Source: a virus
Virus record (IMG/VR): IMGVR_UViG_3300029286_000012
Length of the DNA: 64,000 nt
Direction: 5' to 3' (one strand)
Both the position numbers and the translations under genes were made by a program. Below the pieces are notes generated by a model, which saw only the letters and a list, made by a program, of their open reading frames with translations, had not been told where the DNA came from and searched no databases. Shown one piece after another: positions 29,806 to 35,599 of the stretch (positions are counted from its first letter, which is position 1; every line of letters begins with the position of its first letter).

Positions 29806-30780
29806 ATGGCAACAAAGAAAACAACTCCAAAAGCACCAGCAAAAGCTGTAAAAACTGTAAAACAATCTACGGAACCAAAAACAGTTCCAGTAGAAAAAGT
29901 ACAAGAAATTGCTGACCAAGCCGCTCAAGCATCTGCGGCTGCTACCCCAACTGAAGCCCCGGCTCCAGGACAAGTACAAGTTAACGTAGACTTTCTACGT
30001 ACAACAAAGGTACACATTGCAATGCCATGTTATGGTGGTATGTTGACAGAATCAACATTCATGTCTTTTATCAAGTGGGCAAACACAGCCCGTCAACTTG
30101 GTATCGATTGGACATTAGAAACAATGGTTAATGAATCACTTATTAGCCGAGCACGAAATACACTAACTGCTAAGTTCTTAGACATGCCAGACGCAACACA
30201 CCTATTCTTTGTTGACGCTGACATTGGTTGGGAGCCATGGCATCTATTAGTTCTATTGAACCGTGACGTAGATGTTTGTGCAGGATTATATCCAATGAAG
30301 ACAATGCCAATCAAGTGGGTAGTTAACGGATTTGAAGGTGCTGAAGAAGGACCAGATGGCTTCCAAGAAGTAAGTAAAGCAGGTACTGGTTTCTTATTAA
30401 TGAAGAAGCACGTATTTGACAAACTGAAAGCTCACCCAGCTGTTAAGCAATATAAGAACGACATTGGATTAGATCCAAAGTATGACCAACACTTGAAAAC
30501 ATATTTTGACACAGCAGTTCGTCAGAATCGTTACTACAGTGAAGACTGGACATTCTGTGAAAACTGGCGTGACCTAGGTGGTAAGATTTGGGTTGACAAG
30601 CGTATTCTATTACGTCACTCAGGTAGTTATGTATTCTGTATGGAAAATCAACAACATTTGATGAGTACAATTGGACCTATGTTTGTTGCAGAAGAACAAG
30701 CAAAGGCTGCGGCAGCACAACAGGTTGCATCGCAAGTTGTCCCAGATAGTAATGGGAACGTTACACTAAAAATCTCTTAA
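29806..30780 (+). CDS. GT-A fold glycosyltransferase-like protein
   Basis: 'IAMPCYGG', 'ESLISRARN', 'FFVDADIGW', 'GTGFLL', 'SEDWTFC..WR..GGKIWVD'. Confidence 0.75.
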   Translation: MATKKTTPKAPAKAVKTVKQSTEPKTVPVEKVQEIADQAAQASAAATPTEAPAPGQVQVNVDFLRTTKVHIAMPCYGGMLTESTFMSFIKWANTARQLGIDWTLETMVNESLISRARNTLTAKFLDMPDATHLFFVDADIGWEPWHLLVLLNRDVDVCAGLYPMKTMPIKWVVNGFEGAEEGPDGFQEVSKAGTGFLLMKKHVFDKLKAHPAVKQYKNDIGLDPKYDQHLKTYFDTAVRQNRYYSEDWTFCENWRDLGGKIWVDKRILLRHSGSYVFCMENQQHLMSTIGPMFVAEEQAKAAAAQQVASQVVPDSNGNVTLKIS

Positions 30781-30786
30781 ATGAGT

Positions 30787-30806
30787 AGCCCCGAAAGGGG
30801 CTTTTT
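30787..30806 (+). terminator. Rho-independent terminator
   Basis: AGCCCC-GAAA-GGGGCT followed by TTTT. Confidence 0.88.
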
Positions 30807-30816
30807 AGTGGGCATA

Positions 30817-30862
30817 TTGTCATAGCTTTGTCATCGTACTGTCACAATTCCTGAAGTAAATA
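30817..30862 (+). promoter_or_regulatory. Three-unit Pho box plus TAAATA promoter element
   Basis: TTGTCAT-agct-TTGTCAT-cgta-CTGTCAC has an exact 11-bp period. TAAATA follows 11 nt later. Confidence 0.8.
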
Positions 30863-30908
30863 CTTGTGTGTCATAGTGGCACAAAATTAACCACACAAGG
30901 AGAAACCC

Positions 30909-31556
30909 ATGAGATTAGAATATTTAGCCGCAAGATTAGTAGCTGTAGAAGCCAAATTAGCAAACCTAACTGGTACAACAGTTAATACAGACAGTGCCAC
31001 AAGCATTGAAGAACTAGACGCAAGACTTTCTGTAGTTGAAGTTCAGGTTGACCAATTAATCGCTGAGAAAACAGAAGCTCACATTGACGCTATTGTTGCC
31101 GCAGTAGCAAATGACGCACCAGTTGACGTAGCAGAAGTAGTTGCATTGTCATCAAGCGTATTCCATGAAGAAGCCGCTATCATCGTTACTGATGTTGTTA
31201 CAGCACAAACTGAAGCTGATCCAATTGTTCATACTGAAGTTGCTGATATTGTTTCAGCCGCTGTTATGGCAGTTGTTACAGCAGAGCCGAAAGTTGTTAT
31301 TGATCCAGTCGCAATCACAGAAGCTATCATGCAAGCAGTTGCTGATATGCCAGCCCCAACTCCAGAAGTAGCTCAACAAGTTGCTGATGCAGTTGAAGAA
31401 ATTATAATTGCGGCTACAGGTGTTGAAGCAGTTACTCCAGAAGTAACACAACAAATTATTGAAGCAGTTGCTACTCCTGCAGATCCAGCATTGGACGCTA
31501 TTGAAGCTCGTTTAAATGTTGCTGAAGCAAAGGTAGACAGTCTATTGGGAAAATAA
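30909..31556 (+). CDS. Acidic A/V/E/D-rich hypothetical protein with three coiled-coil repeats
   Basis: AAGGAG SD and three 'ARLxxxExxxxxL' segments. Confidence 0.7.
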   Translation: MRLEYLAARLVAVEAKLANLTGTTVNTDSATSIEELDARLSVVEVQVDQLIAEKTEAHIDAIVAAVANDAPVDVAEVVALSSSVFHEEAAIIVTDVVTAQTEADPIVHTEVADIVSAAVMAVVTAEPKVVIDPVAITEAIMQAVADMPAPTPEVAQQVADAVEEIIIAATGVEAVTPEVTQQIIEAVATPADPALDAIEARLNVAEAKVDSLLGK

Positions 31557-31639
31557 TAACCAGCGTTAAAGGCTGGCTATCAACCCTTTTTAAATCGGAC
31601 ACAAAATAGCGTGTCGCTGGATTTGCGTAACCAGTACTA

Positions 31640-31662
31640 AGGGCCTCAAAAGGGCTCTTTTT
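31640..31662 (+). terminator. Probable terminator
   Basis: AGGGCC...GGCTCT stem followed by a T-run. Confidence 0.6.
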
Positions 31663-31672
31663 AATGGTTATA

Positions 31673-31707
31673 TTGTCACATATTTGTCACAATATTCCAA
31701 ATAAATA
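31673..31707 (+). promoter_or_regulatory. Two-unit Pho box plus TAAATA promoter element
   Basis: TTGTCAC-atat-TTGTCAC (11-bp period), then TAAATA 11 nt later, then ATG 4 nt after that. Confidence 0.75.
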
Positions 31708-31711
31708 CAAG

Positions 31712-32575
31712 ATGAAAACATATCGTTCTATCTTTATCAGTGATGTGCATCTTGGTACTAGAGATAGTAAAGCAGATAAATTAAATAATTTTTTAAAACA
31801 TAATACATGTGATACATTGTATCTTGTAGGTGATATTATTGATGCTTGGAGAATACAACAAAACAAATGGCGGTGGAAACAAAGTCACACCAATGTTGTT
31901 CGTAGAGTTTTGGGTCATGCTAAACGAGGAACTAAAGTAATATATGTAGCAGGCAATCATGATGAATTTTTAAGACCTATGATTCCATATGGATTCAGTT
32001 TTGGCTTAGTAGAAATTCACAATCAAATAGAACATATAGGTGCTGATGGTAAGCACTATTTAGTAACACACGGTGACTTGTTTGATGGTATAACAAGATT
32101 AGCCCCGTGGATAAGTTTTTTAGGAGACAAAGCATATGATTTCATTTTATCGCTTAATAGCAAATTCAATTGGATACGTCATCGTTTTGGTTTTGGGTAC
32201 TTTAGTCTTAGCAAATACCTTAAACACAAAGTAAAAAAAGCCATAGATTTTATGTTTCAGTTTGAAAAAAATCTAGCGGCATATTGTAAGAAGCGAGGTT
32301 TTGATGGAGTTATTTGTGGACATATACACCACGCAGAAATAAAAATTATAGATGGTGTCACATACATGAATGACGGTGACTGGGTTGAAAGTTGTACAGC
32401 ACTTGTAGAACATCACGACGGTCGTTGGGAAATAGTTACTTGGACTAAGGAGAAGGACGATGTGGATACTGATAATACTAGCAGTTCATATGCACGACTC
32501 AAAAGACGTGCCGGGACGGATAGAACTGACATTCCAAGACCAGCACTCTTGCCAACAGGCTTTAAGTACAATTAA
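31712..32575 (+). CDS. plcP: PlcP-like phospholipase C (LpxH/COG2908 metallophosphoesterase)
   Basis: 'YRSIFISDVHLG', 'LYLVGDIID.W...W.W...H..VV', 'GNHDEFLR', 'HGDLFD', 'DGVICGHIH', 'Y.NDGDWVESCTALVE'. A Pho box lies upstream and a glycosyltransferase downstream. Confidence 0.8.
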   Translation: MKTYRSIFISDVHLGTRDSKADKLNNFLKHNTCDTLYLVGDIIDAWRIQQNKWRWKQSHTNVVRRVLGHAKRGTKVIYVAGNHDEFLRPMIPYGFSFGLVEIHNQIEHIGADGKHYLVTHGDLFDGITRLAPWISFLGDKAYDFILSLNSKFNWIRHRFGFGYFSLSKYLKHKVKKAIDFMFQFEKNLAAYCKKRGFDGVICGHIHHAEIKIIDGVTYMNDGDWVESCTALVEHHDGRWEIVTWTKEKDDVDTDNTSSSYARLKRRAGTDRTDIPRPALLPTGFKYN

Positions 32576-32630
32576 ATACAAACTGAAGTTTGACAATTTT
32601 AAGGTTATAGCAGAATGCAAAAAACAATAA
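32460..32630 (+). CDS. Small hypothetical protein, 56 aa, overlapping the plcP 3' end; not in the ORF track
   Basis: MWILIILAVHMHDSKDVPGRIELTFQDQHSCQQAL...AECKKQ*, with AAGGAG/AAGGA upstream, a hydrophobic N-terminus and two Cys. Confidence 0.6.
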   Translation: MWILIILAVHMHDSKDVPGRIELTFQDQHSCQQALSTIKYKLKFDNFKVIAECKKQ

Positions 32631-33331
32631 GTGATAAAATAACTATCGTAGTCCCTTGTAAGAATGAAGAAAATTATATTCATCATTTGTTCAATTCACT
32701 ACGCTCACAAAACATAGGTAACACTAGAATTATCATTGCTGATTGTAGTACTGACAATACTAGACAAGTGATAAAAGATAACAGTTATTTATTGAATGTA
32801 GAAATCATTGAAGGCGGCCCTGTATCCGTTGCCAAGAACAATGGAGCACGATTAGTCACTACTCCGTATATATTGTTTATTGACGCCGATGTTCGTTTCT
32901 TTAAGGATACGGTAATTCATGATGCTGTCAATAAAATGGAATCAATAAACTTGGATCTTGTAGGATTGAATATTAAATCTTATGATAAAGATCCAAGGGC
33001 AAAGATTGGATTCACTGCATTTAACTTAATCAATCACACATTAAAATTCTTTAGTCCTTTCGCAGTTGGAGCGTTTATGCTAACCCGCAAAGATAAATTT
33101 GATGAATACGGTGGCTTCCCTGAAAACTTAGTAACAAGCGAAGATTTCTTTTTGTCCAGAAAATATAGTCCAAAAAAGTTCAGAATAATAAAACATCACT
33201 GTGGTCAAGATAGTCGTAGATTTAAAAAGATGGGATATTTTGGTATGGGTAAATATGTAGTAAAGAATTTCATTAATCGTAATAATAAACAATATTGGGA
33301 TAGTTTAGACTCATCTAAATACTGGAATTAA
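32615..33331 (+). CDS. Family 2 glycosyltransferase
   Basis: 'IVVPCKNEE', 'IIADCSTDNT', 'AKNNGA', 'LFIDAD', 'GGF...SED'. Confidence 0.88.
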   Translation: MQKTISDKITIVVPCKNEENYIHHLFNSLRSQNIGNTRIIIADCSTDNTRQVIKDNSYLLNVEIIEGGPVSVAKNNGARLVTTPYILFIDADVRFFKDTVIHDAVNKMESINLDLVGLNIKSYDKDPRAKIGFTAFNLINHTLKFFSPFAVGAFMLTRKDKFDEYGGFPENLVTSEDFFLSRKYSPKKFRIIKHHCGQDSRRFKKMGYFGMGKYVVKNFINRNNKQYWDSLDSSKYWN

Positions 33332-33379
33332 CATAATTCAGCTCTTTTTCATTTGTATTTGTTAACAGCTAAATACACT

Positions 33380-35599
33380 ATGGACTTAAAAGAACTCGAC
33401 TCATTTAAAATGTCGGATGCAATCACATTTCACGACCAACTTAACCCAAAGTTATTTCGTGGCACTTACCTACAAGCTGACGTATCCGATCAATTAAAAG
33501 TTATAGCACAAGATTTTTTGCAAGAGTTAGGCATTAAAGATTTAGATGTTAAAGATATAACTATATCCGGATCTAATGCGGCTTACAGCTATACGCCCAA
33601 CAGCGACTTAGACTTACATATATTAGTTGATTTAAGTCAGTATCCAGACGATGAGATATACCAAGAGCTATTTCACGCTAAAAAAACAATATACAATGAT
33701 TCACACAACATTAAAGTTCACGGAATTCCAGTAGAATTGTATGTGCAAGATAGCAACGAACCTGTAATTAGTTTAGGCGAATACAGCATATTAAAAGACA
33801 AGTGGCTTAGAATTCCTACTAAACGTAGAAGTAATTTAGACCAAACTGCTACTAAACAGAAATATGAAAAGTTATTAAAACTAGCAGAATATGCATTAAA
33901 GTCAAAGAAATTAAGTAAAGTAAAACAAGTATTACAAACTATCAAACGTTATCGTCAAGCTGGACTAGATAAAGGTGGTGAGTTTGGTCCTGAGAATCTA
34001 GCATATAAAGCATTAAGAGTACAGGGTTACATCACTAAGTTATATGATTTGCGTGACAAATTACATAGTGAGAAGTTAACTATCGAAACGATGTATCAGC
34101 CTATCAATGATGAGGTCAATGAAGCATTTGATAAACCTTATAAAATACTTAGATGGGAAAAGGGTGACTACGGTGATGTAGACGCAATAGCACGATTAGA
34201 TGACAACACCTTTCTAAGTATTATGTTCAACAAGGGAGTCAGTAAAGATTCAAAAGAGGAAGCCTGGAGTGTTGAATTCTATAGAAACAATAGCCAGGAA
34301 GTCACAGGCGAAGGTGATGCACAACGTGTATTTGCCACTGTGTTAAGTGCTATTCAAACATTTATTAAAAAGTATAAGCCTAATCGTGTAATCTTTTCAG
34401 CCAGTAAAGAAGTTGAACAAGGACAGAATGCAGAAAGTAGATCCAGCTTGTATGATAGATTAGTTCAACGCTATGCCAAGTCTTGGGGATTTAAAGCGTT
34501 CCGTGCAGACACCGGCAACAAAGTTATCTACGAATTGAGTAAGATAAAAAAAGACGTAGAAGAAGCACGTAGAAACCCAGAACAGAATAGAAAAAGTGGC
34601 TCTGGAAAATATGACCTTATTAATTACGCCGAAGATAATATTGATGATAAAGATAACTGGGCTGTTAGTATGACTATGGAGCCCAAGTTAGGTATTAATC
34701 CACGTGCGGCTGTTAGTGAAGACACCCCCAAAGGCATTTACTTTTATCCATTAAGATATTTTATGCAAATGGCTGACCGTGATGAATCATTGCCTTGGGG
34801 AGATAACTTCCCCTATCTACAGTTGTTTCAGTATAACCGTTCAGGCGAAATGACTAAACAAACTAAAGTTGATCTTGCTAAACTAAAACAAGTATTAAGT
34901 CAATATTGCCCTGAAGAAGTAATACAACAAGCAAGTGAAGAAGATGAATACGATGGTACACCATACTGGTTTATCTATGACTGCTTAAGTAGACTAGGAC
35001 AAAATGATGAAACTAATGTTGTTCGTTGGAATAAAGTATTGCGTGATTTAGGCTTTACCAGTGTGTATGACGACGGTGGTGGTTGGATTGCTTACAATGA
35101 ACCAACACAAGGAGTTGTGTTAGATCCACGTATTATTAAACAACATAAGATGTTTGATAATCGTAATCCAACACTACAACATAGACGATACGATATACAA
35201 GGATTAGCTGATGCTATTGGTTGGTCTAGTTATTTCCAACGTGAAAGCCAATTACAACGAATATACAATCATCCCGACGAGAAAAAAGTAATGTTGGATG
35301 TTGCTAAGAGTATGCTTAAACCGTTCTTAGGTAAATCTAGCGAAGAAGCAGATGAAATGGGATATGACCAAGCAATAAAAGATGCCGCAGATAAAGTCAT
35401 TGAGATATTAAAACAGCCGATTAATGAAGCGTCTGGCTACATTCCAAGCGAAAAACAGAAAAACGACCCACGTTTTAAGACAGCATTAACAGTAGATGTT
35501 AATCCATATAGTATCAAAAAGAATGCAAAAGCGTTCGGCTGGCTCACAACTAGAGCTGGTATTCCTCCAACAGCAAAGCCATCAGGCAAAATCTCTTAA
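33380..35599 (+). CDS. Multidomain protein: Pol-beta-family nucleotidyltransferase, unknown domain and ART-like domain
   Basis: 'ISGSNA.Y....SDLDLH...VELYVQD' NTase motif. Later modules begin after VNE/VEE/INE sites. Confidence 0.7.
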   Translation: MDLKELDSFKMSDAITFHDQLNPKLFRGTYLQADVSDQLKVIAQDFLQELGIKDLDVKDITISGSNAAYSYTPNSDLDLHILVDLSQYPDDEIYQELFHAKKTIYNDSHNIKVHGIPVELYVQDSNEPVISLGEYSILKDKWLRIPTKRRSNLDQTATKQKYEKLLKLAEYALKSKKLSKVKQVLQTIKRYRQAGLDKGGEFGPENLAYKALRVQGYITKLYDLRDKLHSEKLTIETMYQPINDEVNEAFDKPYKILRWEKGDYGDVDAIARLDDNTFLSIMFNKGVSKDSKEEAWSVEFYRNNSQEVTGEGDAQRVFATVLSAIQTFIKKYKPNRVIFSASKEVEQGQNAESRSSLYDRLVQRYAKSWGFKAFRADTGNKVIYELSKIKKDVEEARRNPEQNRKSGSGKYDLINYAEDNIDDKDNWAVSMTMEPKLGINPRAAVSEDTPKGIYFYPLRYFMQMADRDESLPWGDNFPYLQLFQYNRSGEMTKQTKVDLAKLKQVLSQYCPEEVIQQASEEDEYDGTPYWFIYDCLSRLGQNDETNVVRWNKVLRDLGFTSVYDDGGGWIAYNEPTQGVVLDPRIIKQHKMFDNRNPTLQHRRYDIQGLADAIGWSSYFQRESQLQRIYNHPDEKKVMLDVAKSMLKPFLGKSSEEADEMGYDQAIKDAADKVIEILKQPINEASGYIPSEKQKNDPRFKTALTVDVNPYSIKKNAKAFGWLTTRAGIPPTAKPSGKIS

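Follow-up and report, generated by a model that had tools for sequence, protein, structure and literature searches.

A candidate phage-borne cassette for phosphate-stress lipid renovation behind Pho-box-like promoters

The stretch analysed here (the window) comprises 64,000 nucleotides of IMG/VR virus record IMGVR_UViG_3300029286_000012. Between positions 30,817 and 33,331 it carries two promoters with Pho-box-like direct repeats, the first ahead of the gene for an acidic protein (P0001) and the second ahead of plcP, which encodes a PlcP-type metallophosphoesterase (P0002) and is followed by the gene for a GT2 glycosyltransferase (P0003). We consider it likely that these genes constitute a phosphate-stress lipid-renovation module of a phage, under the control of host PhoB. 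This reading is based on the placement of P0002 among PlcP-like proteins, the specificity of the boxes, a promoter held in common with pstS in close relatives, and the linkage between PlcP and a glycosyltransferase. Membrane lipid remodelling had been proposed earlier from the letters of the window and its open reading frames (ORFs), without database searches (hereafter the sequence-only reading). That interpretation is supported by the present analysis, in which all of its parts that could be tested in silico held. Coordinates of the features are collected in Table 1.

PlcP-type enzyme and its glycosyltransferase partner

P0002 carries the complete motif set of its metallophosphoesterase family, as the sequence-only reading had stated. 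An alignment of 44 sequences shows no variation at motifs D11, H13, GD41, GNH83D, H120 and GH204xH206, and the protein matches Pfam Metallophos (7e-12) with all seven metal ligands kept. Against the NCBIfam LpxH equivalogs it scores 45.6 and 34.1 bits, which leaves it outside families whose cut-offs are 134 bits (NF003743) and 190 bits (TIGR01854). True LpxH, scoring 239–344 bits, is present in each of four bacterial genomes searched; two of these, both Pseudomonas, hold a second paralogue of about 41–43 bits to which P0002 is 55–56% identical. A maximum-likelihood tree of 89 rows places four LpxH sequences on one side and 85 PlcP-like sequences, those of phages among them, on the other side of a long branch whose support is 100% in the Shimodaira–Hasegawa-like approximate likelihood ratio test (SH-aLRT). 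The residues at one motif follow the same division, with GNH(D/E) in 85/85 PlcP-like rows and GNRD in 4/4 LpxH rows. Such a phylogeny had been suggested together with the original assignment of the protein to PlcP rather than LpxH, and it groups P0002 with the PlcP-like paralogues. Because P0002 scores below the LpxH cut-offs, has GNHD and not GNRD, falls in a separate clade and belongs to a family found in plcP-agt contexts, its sequence identifies it as a PlcP-type enzyme and not as LpxH, and phospholipase C activity would be expected of it.

The genomic context of bacterial relatives points in the same direction. A HMMER full-library search with P0002 returned 906 cluster representatives at E <= 1e-30 (best 40–55% identity), and a scan of species-representative genomes gave 80 named loci at 46–57% identity, mostly from Alpha-, Beta- and Gammaproteobacteria and including eight Pseudomonas. 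In tblastn comparisons with these 80 bacterial homologues, P0002 gave E values of 2e-92 to 2e-81, and an Agt gene lies directly downstream of 31 of them; the published criterion for PlcP is a BLASTP E value below 1e-40 to the characterised MED193_17359 (PMC4796936). Counted by distance, an Agt-like GT4 gene is found at most 300 bp downstream in 31/79 loci and a BtaA-like DUF3419 gene in 1/79, and P0002 is 50–57% identical to the proteobacterial paralogues located in plcP-agt or plcP-btaA operons. Moreover, Pho-box-like repeats are enriched upstream of the bacterial relatives (32/60 loci versus 10/120 control windows). The plcP-agt operon contexts seen around these relatives are the published ones (PMC4796936, PMC8528852).

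The AlphaFold model of P0002 (predicted local distance difference test score, pLDDT, 85) includes a helical lipid-binding cap, as does LpxH. LpxH structures are its best fold matches, at 17–21% identity, and no PlcP structure is among its PDB fold matches; residues from about 250 to 287 have a pLDDT below 56. Word-based searches with P0002 and P0003 recovered near-identical phage relatives, with no distant named homologue among the matches listed. Two isolated phages encode homologues of P0002, both annotated as LpxH: Pelagibacter phage Mosig, in which the 48%-identical homologue is encoded divergently from pstS, and Synechococcus phage S-SRM01 (37% identity). The Mosig intergenic region between pstS and the plcP homologue (L001, 3851–4000) contains TTAACA-type repeats with 11-bp phasing (TTTAACAAAAA and CTTAACATTTA), a pattern of the cyanobacterial and SAR11 style of Pho box.

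The pairing of PlcP with a glycosyltransferase was assessed in the window and 85 related viral loci (86 in total), in which PlcP is 80–93% identical to that of the window. A glycosyltransferase gene follows plcP in 83/83 non-truncated loci (3/86 are truncated), of the GT2 type in 62 and of an Agt-like GT4 type in 21; the link to a gene for phosphorus-free lipid synthesis by which PlcP is recognised is thus seen throughout. The GT4 proteins, of 333–340 residues, are 38–42% identical to bacterial Agt encoded beside plcP. The PlcP–glycosyltransferase cassette of the sequence-only reading is therefore a constant pairing in relatives, a quarter of which have the canonical Agt-type GT4. The two states interleave on the PlcP tree, with 15 changes by parsimony and at least three swaps forced by supported branches, and in one relative a PlcP almost identical to that of the window is followed by GT4. 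GT2 and GT4 look interchangeable in the slot after PlcP, and this interchange is the main argument that the acceptor of P0003 would be the diacylglycerol left by PlcP.

P0003 itself conforms to the earlier description of a GT2 gene after plcP: it matches Pfam Glycos_transf_2 (3e-22, 79.7 bits) and keeps the catalytic DxD (D90-A-D92) and ED (E176-D177) motifs. It also lies just above the Pfam GT21 cut-off (22.9 versus 21.7 bits). In its model the GT-A domain is followed by basic and aromatic helices, an arrangement that would suit a monotopic enzyme of the membrane surface. At loci L099–L103, which encode the bacterial proteins closest to P0003 (242–256 residues), the next gene specifies in each case a ~430-residue membrane protein carrying VTT/DedA and LssY_C domains.

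Pho-box-like promoters and the pstS slot

The 11-bp Pho-box-like repeats reported by the sequence-only reading, three units before 30909 and two before 31712, are present and unique in the window. The half-sites of the triple repeat are TGTCAT (30818), TGTCAT (30829) and TGTCAC (30840). The exact pattern TGTCAY-N5-TGTCAY has three matches in 64 kb, all on the plus strand and confined to these two promoters, compared with a mean of 0.08 in 100 shuffled sequences, none of which reached three; the looser half-site TGT[CA]AY revealed no extra site on either strand. Terminator-like hairpins precede both box sites (30787–30802 and about 31639–31659), and the gap between the last half-site and the TAAATA core is exactly 11 nt in each case. 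Both sites thus have at least two TGTCA-type direct repeats with 11-bp phasing, in the −35 place and 11 nt before TAAATA; in PhoB-activated promoters such repeats stand about 10 nt before the −10. The boxes also match, in sequence and phasing, the proteobacterial consensus CTGTCATNNNNCTGTCAT published for P. aeruginosa plcP-agt1 (PMC8528852). No canonical sigma-70 −35/−10 pair was found at either site, as is expected for an activator-dependent promoter, and TAAATA matches the sigma-70 −10 hexamer TATAAT at 3/6 positions.

The proposal of Pho-type control gains weight from the relatives, in which the same promoter drives pstS, a classic Pho-regulon gene, within the cassette. The pstS gene adjoins the plcP–glycosyltransferase pair in 14/86 loci and P0001 homologues adjoin it in 13, each behind a box; the two never occur together in the same locus, and P0001 fills the slot held by pstS in close relatives. 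In loci L114–L117 (PlcP 91% identical) and L118–L120 (87%), pstS, identified by Pfam PBP_like_2 (6.5e-36), lies directly upstream of plcP. Its promoter consists of three TGTCAY units, 7–8 nt and then TAAATA, which is the layout of the first promoter of the window. These loci have no separate box before plcP, and therefore appear to contain a pstS-plcP-GT2 operon. The double-box layout of the window's plcP promoter recurs in L121 and other relatives. Among the genes seen across relatives, the boxes accompany pstS, plcP and P0001 only. PMC10976474 cites Zeng and Chisholm 2012 for phage pstS under host PhoBR control. On this pattern, PhoB binding and phosphate-dependent induction would be expected at both promoters of the window.

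TAAATA probably serves as the promoter core of the phage itself and resembles the T4 late promoter TATAAATA; the two promoters may be of a hybrid kind, active in the absence of PhoB as well. (G)ATAAATA or TAAATA also stands a few nucleotides upstream of unrelated starts at about 7312, 21967, 27622, 50296, 52718, 56263 and 62184. The first promoter is followed by a 5′ leader of ~40 nt with a Shine-Dalgarno site, AAGGAG. Since the second core ends 4 nt before ATG 31712, with no Shine-Dalgarno site there, the plcP mRNA probably has little or no leader. The P0001 leader (30863–30900) opens with a hairpin, TGTGTCA-TAG-TGGCACA, which is kept in relatives with different letters (GTGTGCC...GGCACAC; GTGTACC...GGTACAC) and may serve as an operator or stabilise the RNA.

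Overlapping ORF, other features and source phage

A 56-residue ORF, without an entry in the sequence-only reading, extends across the junction of the two genes, sharing 116 nt with the 3′ end of plcP and 16 nt with the 5′ end of the GT2 gene. It is found in 78/86 related loci, before GT2 and GT4 genes alike, with an ATG start replaced by GTG in two relatives. Read in its own frame, the ORF varies by 0.74 bits at codon position 1, 0.46 bits at position 2 and 0.97 bits at position 3, and pairwise protein identity is 62% in this frame versus 37–47% in the other two, including that of plcP. The codon-position pattern and the frame-specific identity argue for purifying selection on the small ORF in its own frame, by which the tail of plcP (residues from about 250 to 287) is overprinted. 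The encoded protein begins with a short hydrophobic stretch (MWILIILAVH) and has a conserved PGR(I/V)EL...LKFxxFKV core and two invariant cysteines; family searches (ESM Atlas, Pfam) returned viral hypothetical proteins only. Because the ORF accompanies PlcP whichever transferase follows, we suspect that it encodes a membrane-anchored protein that assists PlcP or the pathway as a whole. Prediction of a complex between PlcP residues 1–250 and the 56-residue protein gave a score of 0.09 (mark 0.32), which speaks neither for nor against their contact. A programmed frameshift from plcP into the small frame was considered and rejected, as the ORF has its own conserved ATG/GTG start and AAGGAG.

For P0001, family searches including Pfam and ESM Atlas gave no convincing family match and returned viral hypothetical proteins only. 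At 31547–31609, the P0001 stop is preceded by G GGA AAA, and the −1 frame then encodes a short peptide, KIITSVKGWLSTLFKSDTK, which is conserved at the protein level in L129, L188, L198 and L199 and broken in L127. An element of ~45 nt, AAATCGGACACAAAATAGCGTGTCGCTGGATTTGCGTAACCAGTAC, at 31595–31635 (L114, 2440–2485; L118, 2435–2480) folds as two hairpins and lies 3′ of P0001 here and 3′ of pstS in relatives. One of its stems is altered on both sides (ACAC/GTGT here, CCAC/GTGG in L114), and Rfam has no family for it. An Rfam scan of 30700–33400 gave no relevant family, with a sub-threshold chance match to the histone stem-loop falling on the terminator. PADLOC matched no defence family to any of five proteins.

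By its gene content, the window is phage DNA. It has 36% G+C, nearly all genes lie on the plus strand, and its products include a family-B DNA polymerase (PolB) along with a tail tube protein and an ATP-dependent protease. The best PolB matches are giant myoviruses (Sinorhizobium phage Phosso, 49% identity; Agrobacterium phage Atu_ph07, 47%), followed by Vibrio, Xanthomonas and Klebsiella RaK2-like phages. Relatives of the studied genes occur on IMG/VR and metagenome contigs reaching 345–524 kb. Because of the PolB matches and the size of these contigs, we place the module on a Rak2/Atu_ph07-like uncultured jumbo phage of an abundant clade. The module is widespread, with close PlcP relatives on at least 590 IMG/VR contigs of up to 524 kb and at least 8000 protein clusters found in a word search. 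DNA similarity of the window to isolated phages was confined to a single 139-bp match, to Pelagibacter phage Mosig. Neither transfer RNA nor transfer-messenger RNA (tmRNA) genes were found in the window. On the related 93-kb contig L121, ARAGORN detected a permuted two-piece tmRNA (2036–2475; tag ANDSQFSIAA) directly 5′ of the Pho-box-plcP promoter. Locus L013 (JBCCBQ010000005.1), a 348-kb contig from a metagenome-assembled genome labelled 'Pseudomonadota', encodes a PlcP that falls beside the protein of Pelagibacter phage Mosig, apart from bacterial sequences; the contig, of jumbo-phage-genome size, may represent phage DNA that was binned as bacterial.

Table 1 Features of the cassette and its surroundings in the window.
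Feature	Position	Strand	Remarks
Terminator-like hairpin and T run	30787..30808	+	From terminator scan (hairpin 30787–30802); ends upstream gene 29806–30780
Triple Pho-box-like direct repeat TTGTCATAGCT, TTGTCATCGTA, CTGTCACAATT	30817..30849	+	11-bp phasing
TAAATA promoter core	30857..30862	+	11 nt past last half-site
P0001, 215-residue acidic Ala/Val/Glu-rich protein	30909..31556	+	AAGGAG Shine-Dalgarno site
Conserved RNA-like hairpins, then terminator-like hairpin (about 31639–31659) and T run	31557..31664	+	Fold z = −2.15
Double Pho-box-like repeat TTGTCACATAT, TTGTCACAATA	31673..31694	+	TGTCAC at 31674 and 31685
TAAATA promoter core	31702..31707	+	11 nt past last half-site, 4 nt before ATG 31712
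plcP (P0002), PlcP-type (LpxH-like) metallophosphoesterase, 287 residues	31712..32575	+	Catalytic domain ~1–247; tail overprinted by small ORF
56-codon ORF	32460..32630	+	+1 frame relative to plcP; AAGGAG 7–8 nt upstream
P0003, GT2 (GT-A fold) glycosyltransferase, 238 residues	32615..33331	+	Basic/aromatic C-terminal helical region, no transmembrane segment

Proposed mechanism, alternatives and known systems

Based on these findings, we propose a plausible mechanism for the cassette. Under low phosphate, phosphorylated host PhoB would bind the 11-bp-phased TGTCAY repeats in the −35 place, 11 nt before TAAATA, and raise transcription of two units, P0001 and the plcP/56-residue ORF/GT2 operon. 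PlcP, a putative phospholipase C of the Mn-type and LpxH-like, would then cleave the head groups of host glycerophospholipids to yield diacylglycerol, which the GT2 enzyme (an Agt-type GT4 in some relatives) would glycosylate to a phosphorus-free glycolipid. The 56-residue membrane-anchored protein would probably act as an accessory factor of the pathway. The glycolipid would keep the membrane intact, and the freed phosphate would feed synthesis of a phage genome of roughly 350 kb. A cell of the size of E. coli contains ~2e7 phospholipids, as against ~7e5 phosphorus atoms in a 350-kb genome; by this rough estimate from textbook values, membrane phosphorus would cover some tens of phage genomes.

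Several observations weigh against this proposal, beginning with its regulatory part. TAAATA is a poor sigma-70 −10 element and also precedes several unrelated genes of the phage; it resembles a T4-type late promoter, and we know of no precedent for activation of such a promoter by PhoB. In many relatives (L122–L201), TGTAAT/TGTAAC half-sites replace TGTCAY upstream of plcP, pstS and P0001, with both the phasing of 11 bp and the spacing to TAAATA retained; these variants may reflect a different specificity of host PhoB, or drift. Moreover, according to a study of S-PM2, phage Pho-box predictions often fail in tests and are unreliable without gel shifts (PMC10976474). Because of the TAAATA elements elsewhere, the half-site drift and the unreliable predictions, the main rival explanation is that the repeats bind a phage-encoded factor or mark a TAAATA promoter class, so that expression is independent of phosphate and the lipid remodelling is kept. 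The lack of a good sigma-70 promoter at either site would be in line with this explanation too. We nonetheless regard it as unlikely: the repeats are limited to two promoters in 64 kb, their association in relatives is with pstS, plcP and P0001, and their sequence, 11-bp phasing and 10–11 nt spacing to the core fit PhoB-activated promoters and CTGTCATNNNNCTGTCAT (PMC8528852).

The enzymatic part must be weighed in the same way. The fold of P0003 matches generic GT-A enzymes only (TarS, TarP, PcManGT, WrtF) and is uninformative on the acceptor. P0003 is not homologous to Agt, which is defined by a GT-B fold with Glyco_transf_4 and Glycos_transf_1, and BLAST against neighbouring genes found no P0003-like GT2 in the bacterial plcP loci examined. 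Its nearest bacterial relatives, at 31–33% identity, are instead paired with a VTT/DedA-LssY_C membrane protein (401 Pseudomonadota genomes), a pairing that does no more than hint at a lipid-related role of the GT2. The PlcP membership of P0002, in turn, comes from proxies: the LpxH scores, the paralogues, the tree, the GNH(D/E) motif and the bacterial gene contexts. The envelope might be altered for another benefit, such as a block to superinfection or grazing, envelope stability or the timing of lysis. The best PHROG matches of the GT2 are indeed GtrB-like families of O-antigen conversion, and lipid remodelling is reported to alter phage adsorption and predator–prey outcomes in bacteria (PMC9938194, PMC9457565). 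We judge this quite improbable, given that the promoter type and the operon are shared with pstS in relatives, that the GT2 is without the transmembrane helices of GtrB, and that the interchange of GT2 with GT4 (Agt) points to diacylglycerol as the acceptor. It is very improbable that P0002 is a true LpxH, with the GT2 acting on the synthesis of lipid A or lipopolysaccharide, although JGI and GenBank label homologues 'UDP-2,3-diacylglucosamine hydrolase/pyrophosphatase LpxH', the nearest solved folds are LpxH and viral 'lpxH' has been counted among lipopolysaccharide auxiliary genes (PMC10653327, PMC9611531). P0002 falls far under both equivalog cut-offs, has GNHD and not GNRD, and is set apart from true LpxH by a fully supported branch. 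In addition, two bacterial genomes hold both true LpxH and a PlcP-like paralogue, and the neighbours of P0002-type genes in relatives are pstS and Agt.

The preferred reading thus remains a PhoB-controlled lipid-renovation module. More tentatively, we suggest that an abundant clade of jumbo phages carries a self-contained renovation operon wired to host PhoB, consisting of plcP, the gene for the 56-residue membrane protein and GT2 or GT4, and often fused to pstS. In this bolder version, viral 'lpxH' would be misannotated PlcP, the small GT2 would found a new family of diacylglycerol glycosyltransferases, and P0001 would represent a new Pho-regulated function replacing pstS. Neither the PlcP-Agt pathway of bacteria nor the presence of Pho-regulon genes in phages is new; the novelty lies in a viral, pstS-linked candidate for lipid renovation in which the GT2 is not an Agt, an additional gene overlaps its neighbours and the promoter is a hybrid. 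To our knowledge, the known phosphorus-related auxiliary genes of phages (pstS, phoA and phoH) deal with external phosphate or have unclear roles. If a phage does dismantle host phospholipids, viruses would have a new way of acquiring resources from the host. In the library searched, no paper describing a phage PlcP was found, and the genome papers of Mosig and S-SRM01 do not mention the plcP homologue. Viromics papers file viral 'lpxH' under lipopolysaccharide biosynthesis (PMC10653327, PMC9611531), so a widespread module would bear on virome annotation, as well as on how abundant phosphorus-free lipids are estimated to be in nature and on the changes that infection brings to cell surfaces. 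The small GT2 in place of Agt, the conserved overlapping 56-residue gene and the acidic protein in place of pstS are of particular interest.

The closest known counterparts are the PhoB-controlled PlcP-Agt operons of bacteria, among them Sinorhizobium SMc00171, Phaeobacter MED193_17359, SAR11 HTCC7211 and P. aeruginosa PA3219-PA3218. The phage cassette shares with them a phosphoesterase of the same GNHD-bearing family (50–57% identical to proteobacterial homologues), a glycosyltransferase gene directly downstream and a Pho-box-type direct repeat upstream, and a quarter of the related phage loci carry an Agt-like GT4. It differs in its location on a jumbo phage, in a small GT2 of GT-A fold unrelated to Agt, in the 56-residue ORF between the genes, in the TAAATA core and in the fusion to pstS in relatives. 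A GT-A-fold glycosyltransferase after plcP also recalls Pgt, the processive diacylglycerol glycosyltransferase (GT21) known from Mesorhizobium and Agrobacterium, whose gene follows plcP in some marine bacteria (PMC4796936). P0003 barely passes the GT21 cut-off; set against the description of Pgt, it is much shorter, has no transmembrane segments and is a far better match to generic GT2. P0002 resembles LpxH in its metallophosphoesterase core, seven metal ligands and helical lipid-binding cap, whereas its 17–21% identity, sub-cut-off scores, GNHD motif, separate clade and coexistence of its paralogues with true LpxH in two bacterial genomes distinguish it. Finally, the cassette is reminiscent of cyanophage pstS and phoA under host PhoBR, described by Zeng and Chisholm 2012 as cited in PMC10976474: in both, a phage gene is proposed to stand behind a host PhoB site, and relatives of the window carry pstS behind an identical promoter. 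In contrast to those genes, the cassette would not import external phosphate but mine the internal pool of membrane phospholipid, and its box belongs to the TGTCAY type of proteobacteria, whereas the cyanobacterial type reads PyTTAAPyPy(T/A).

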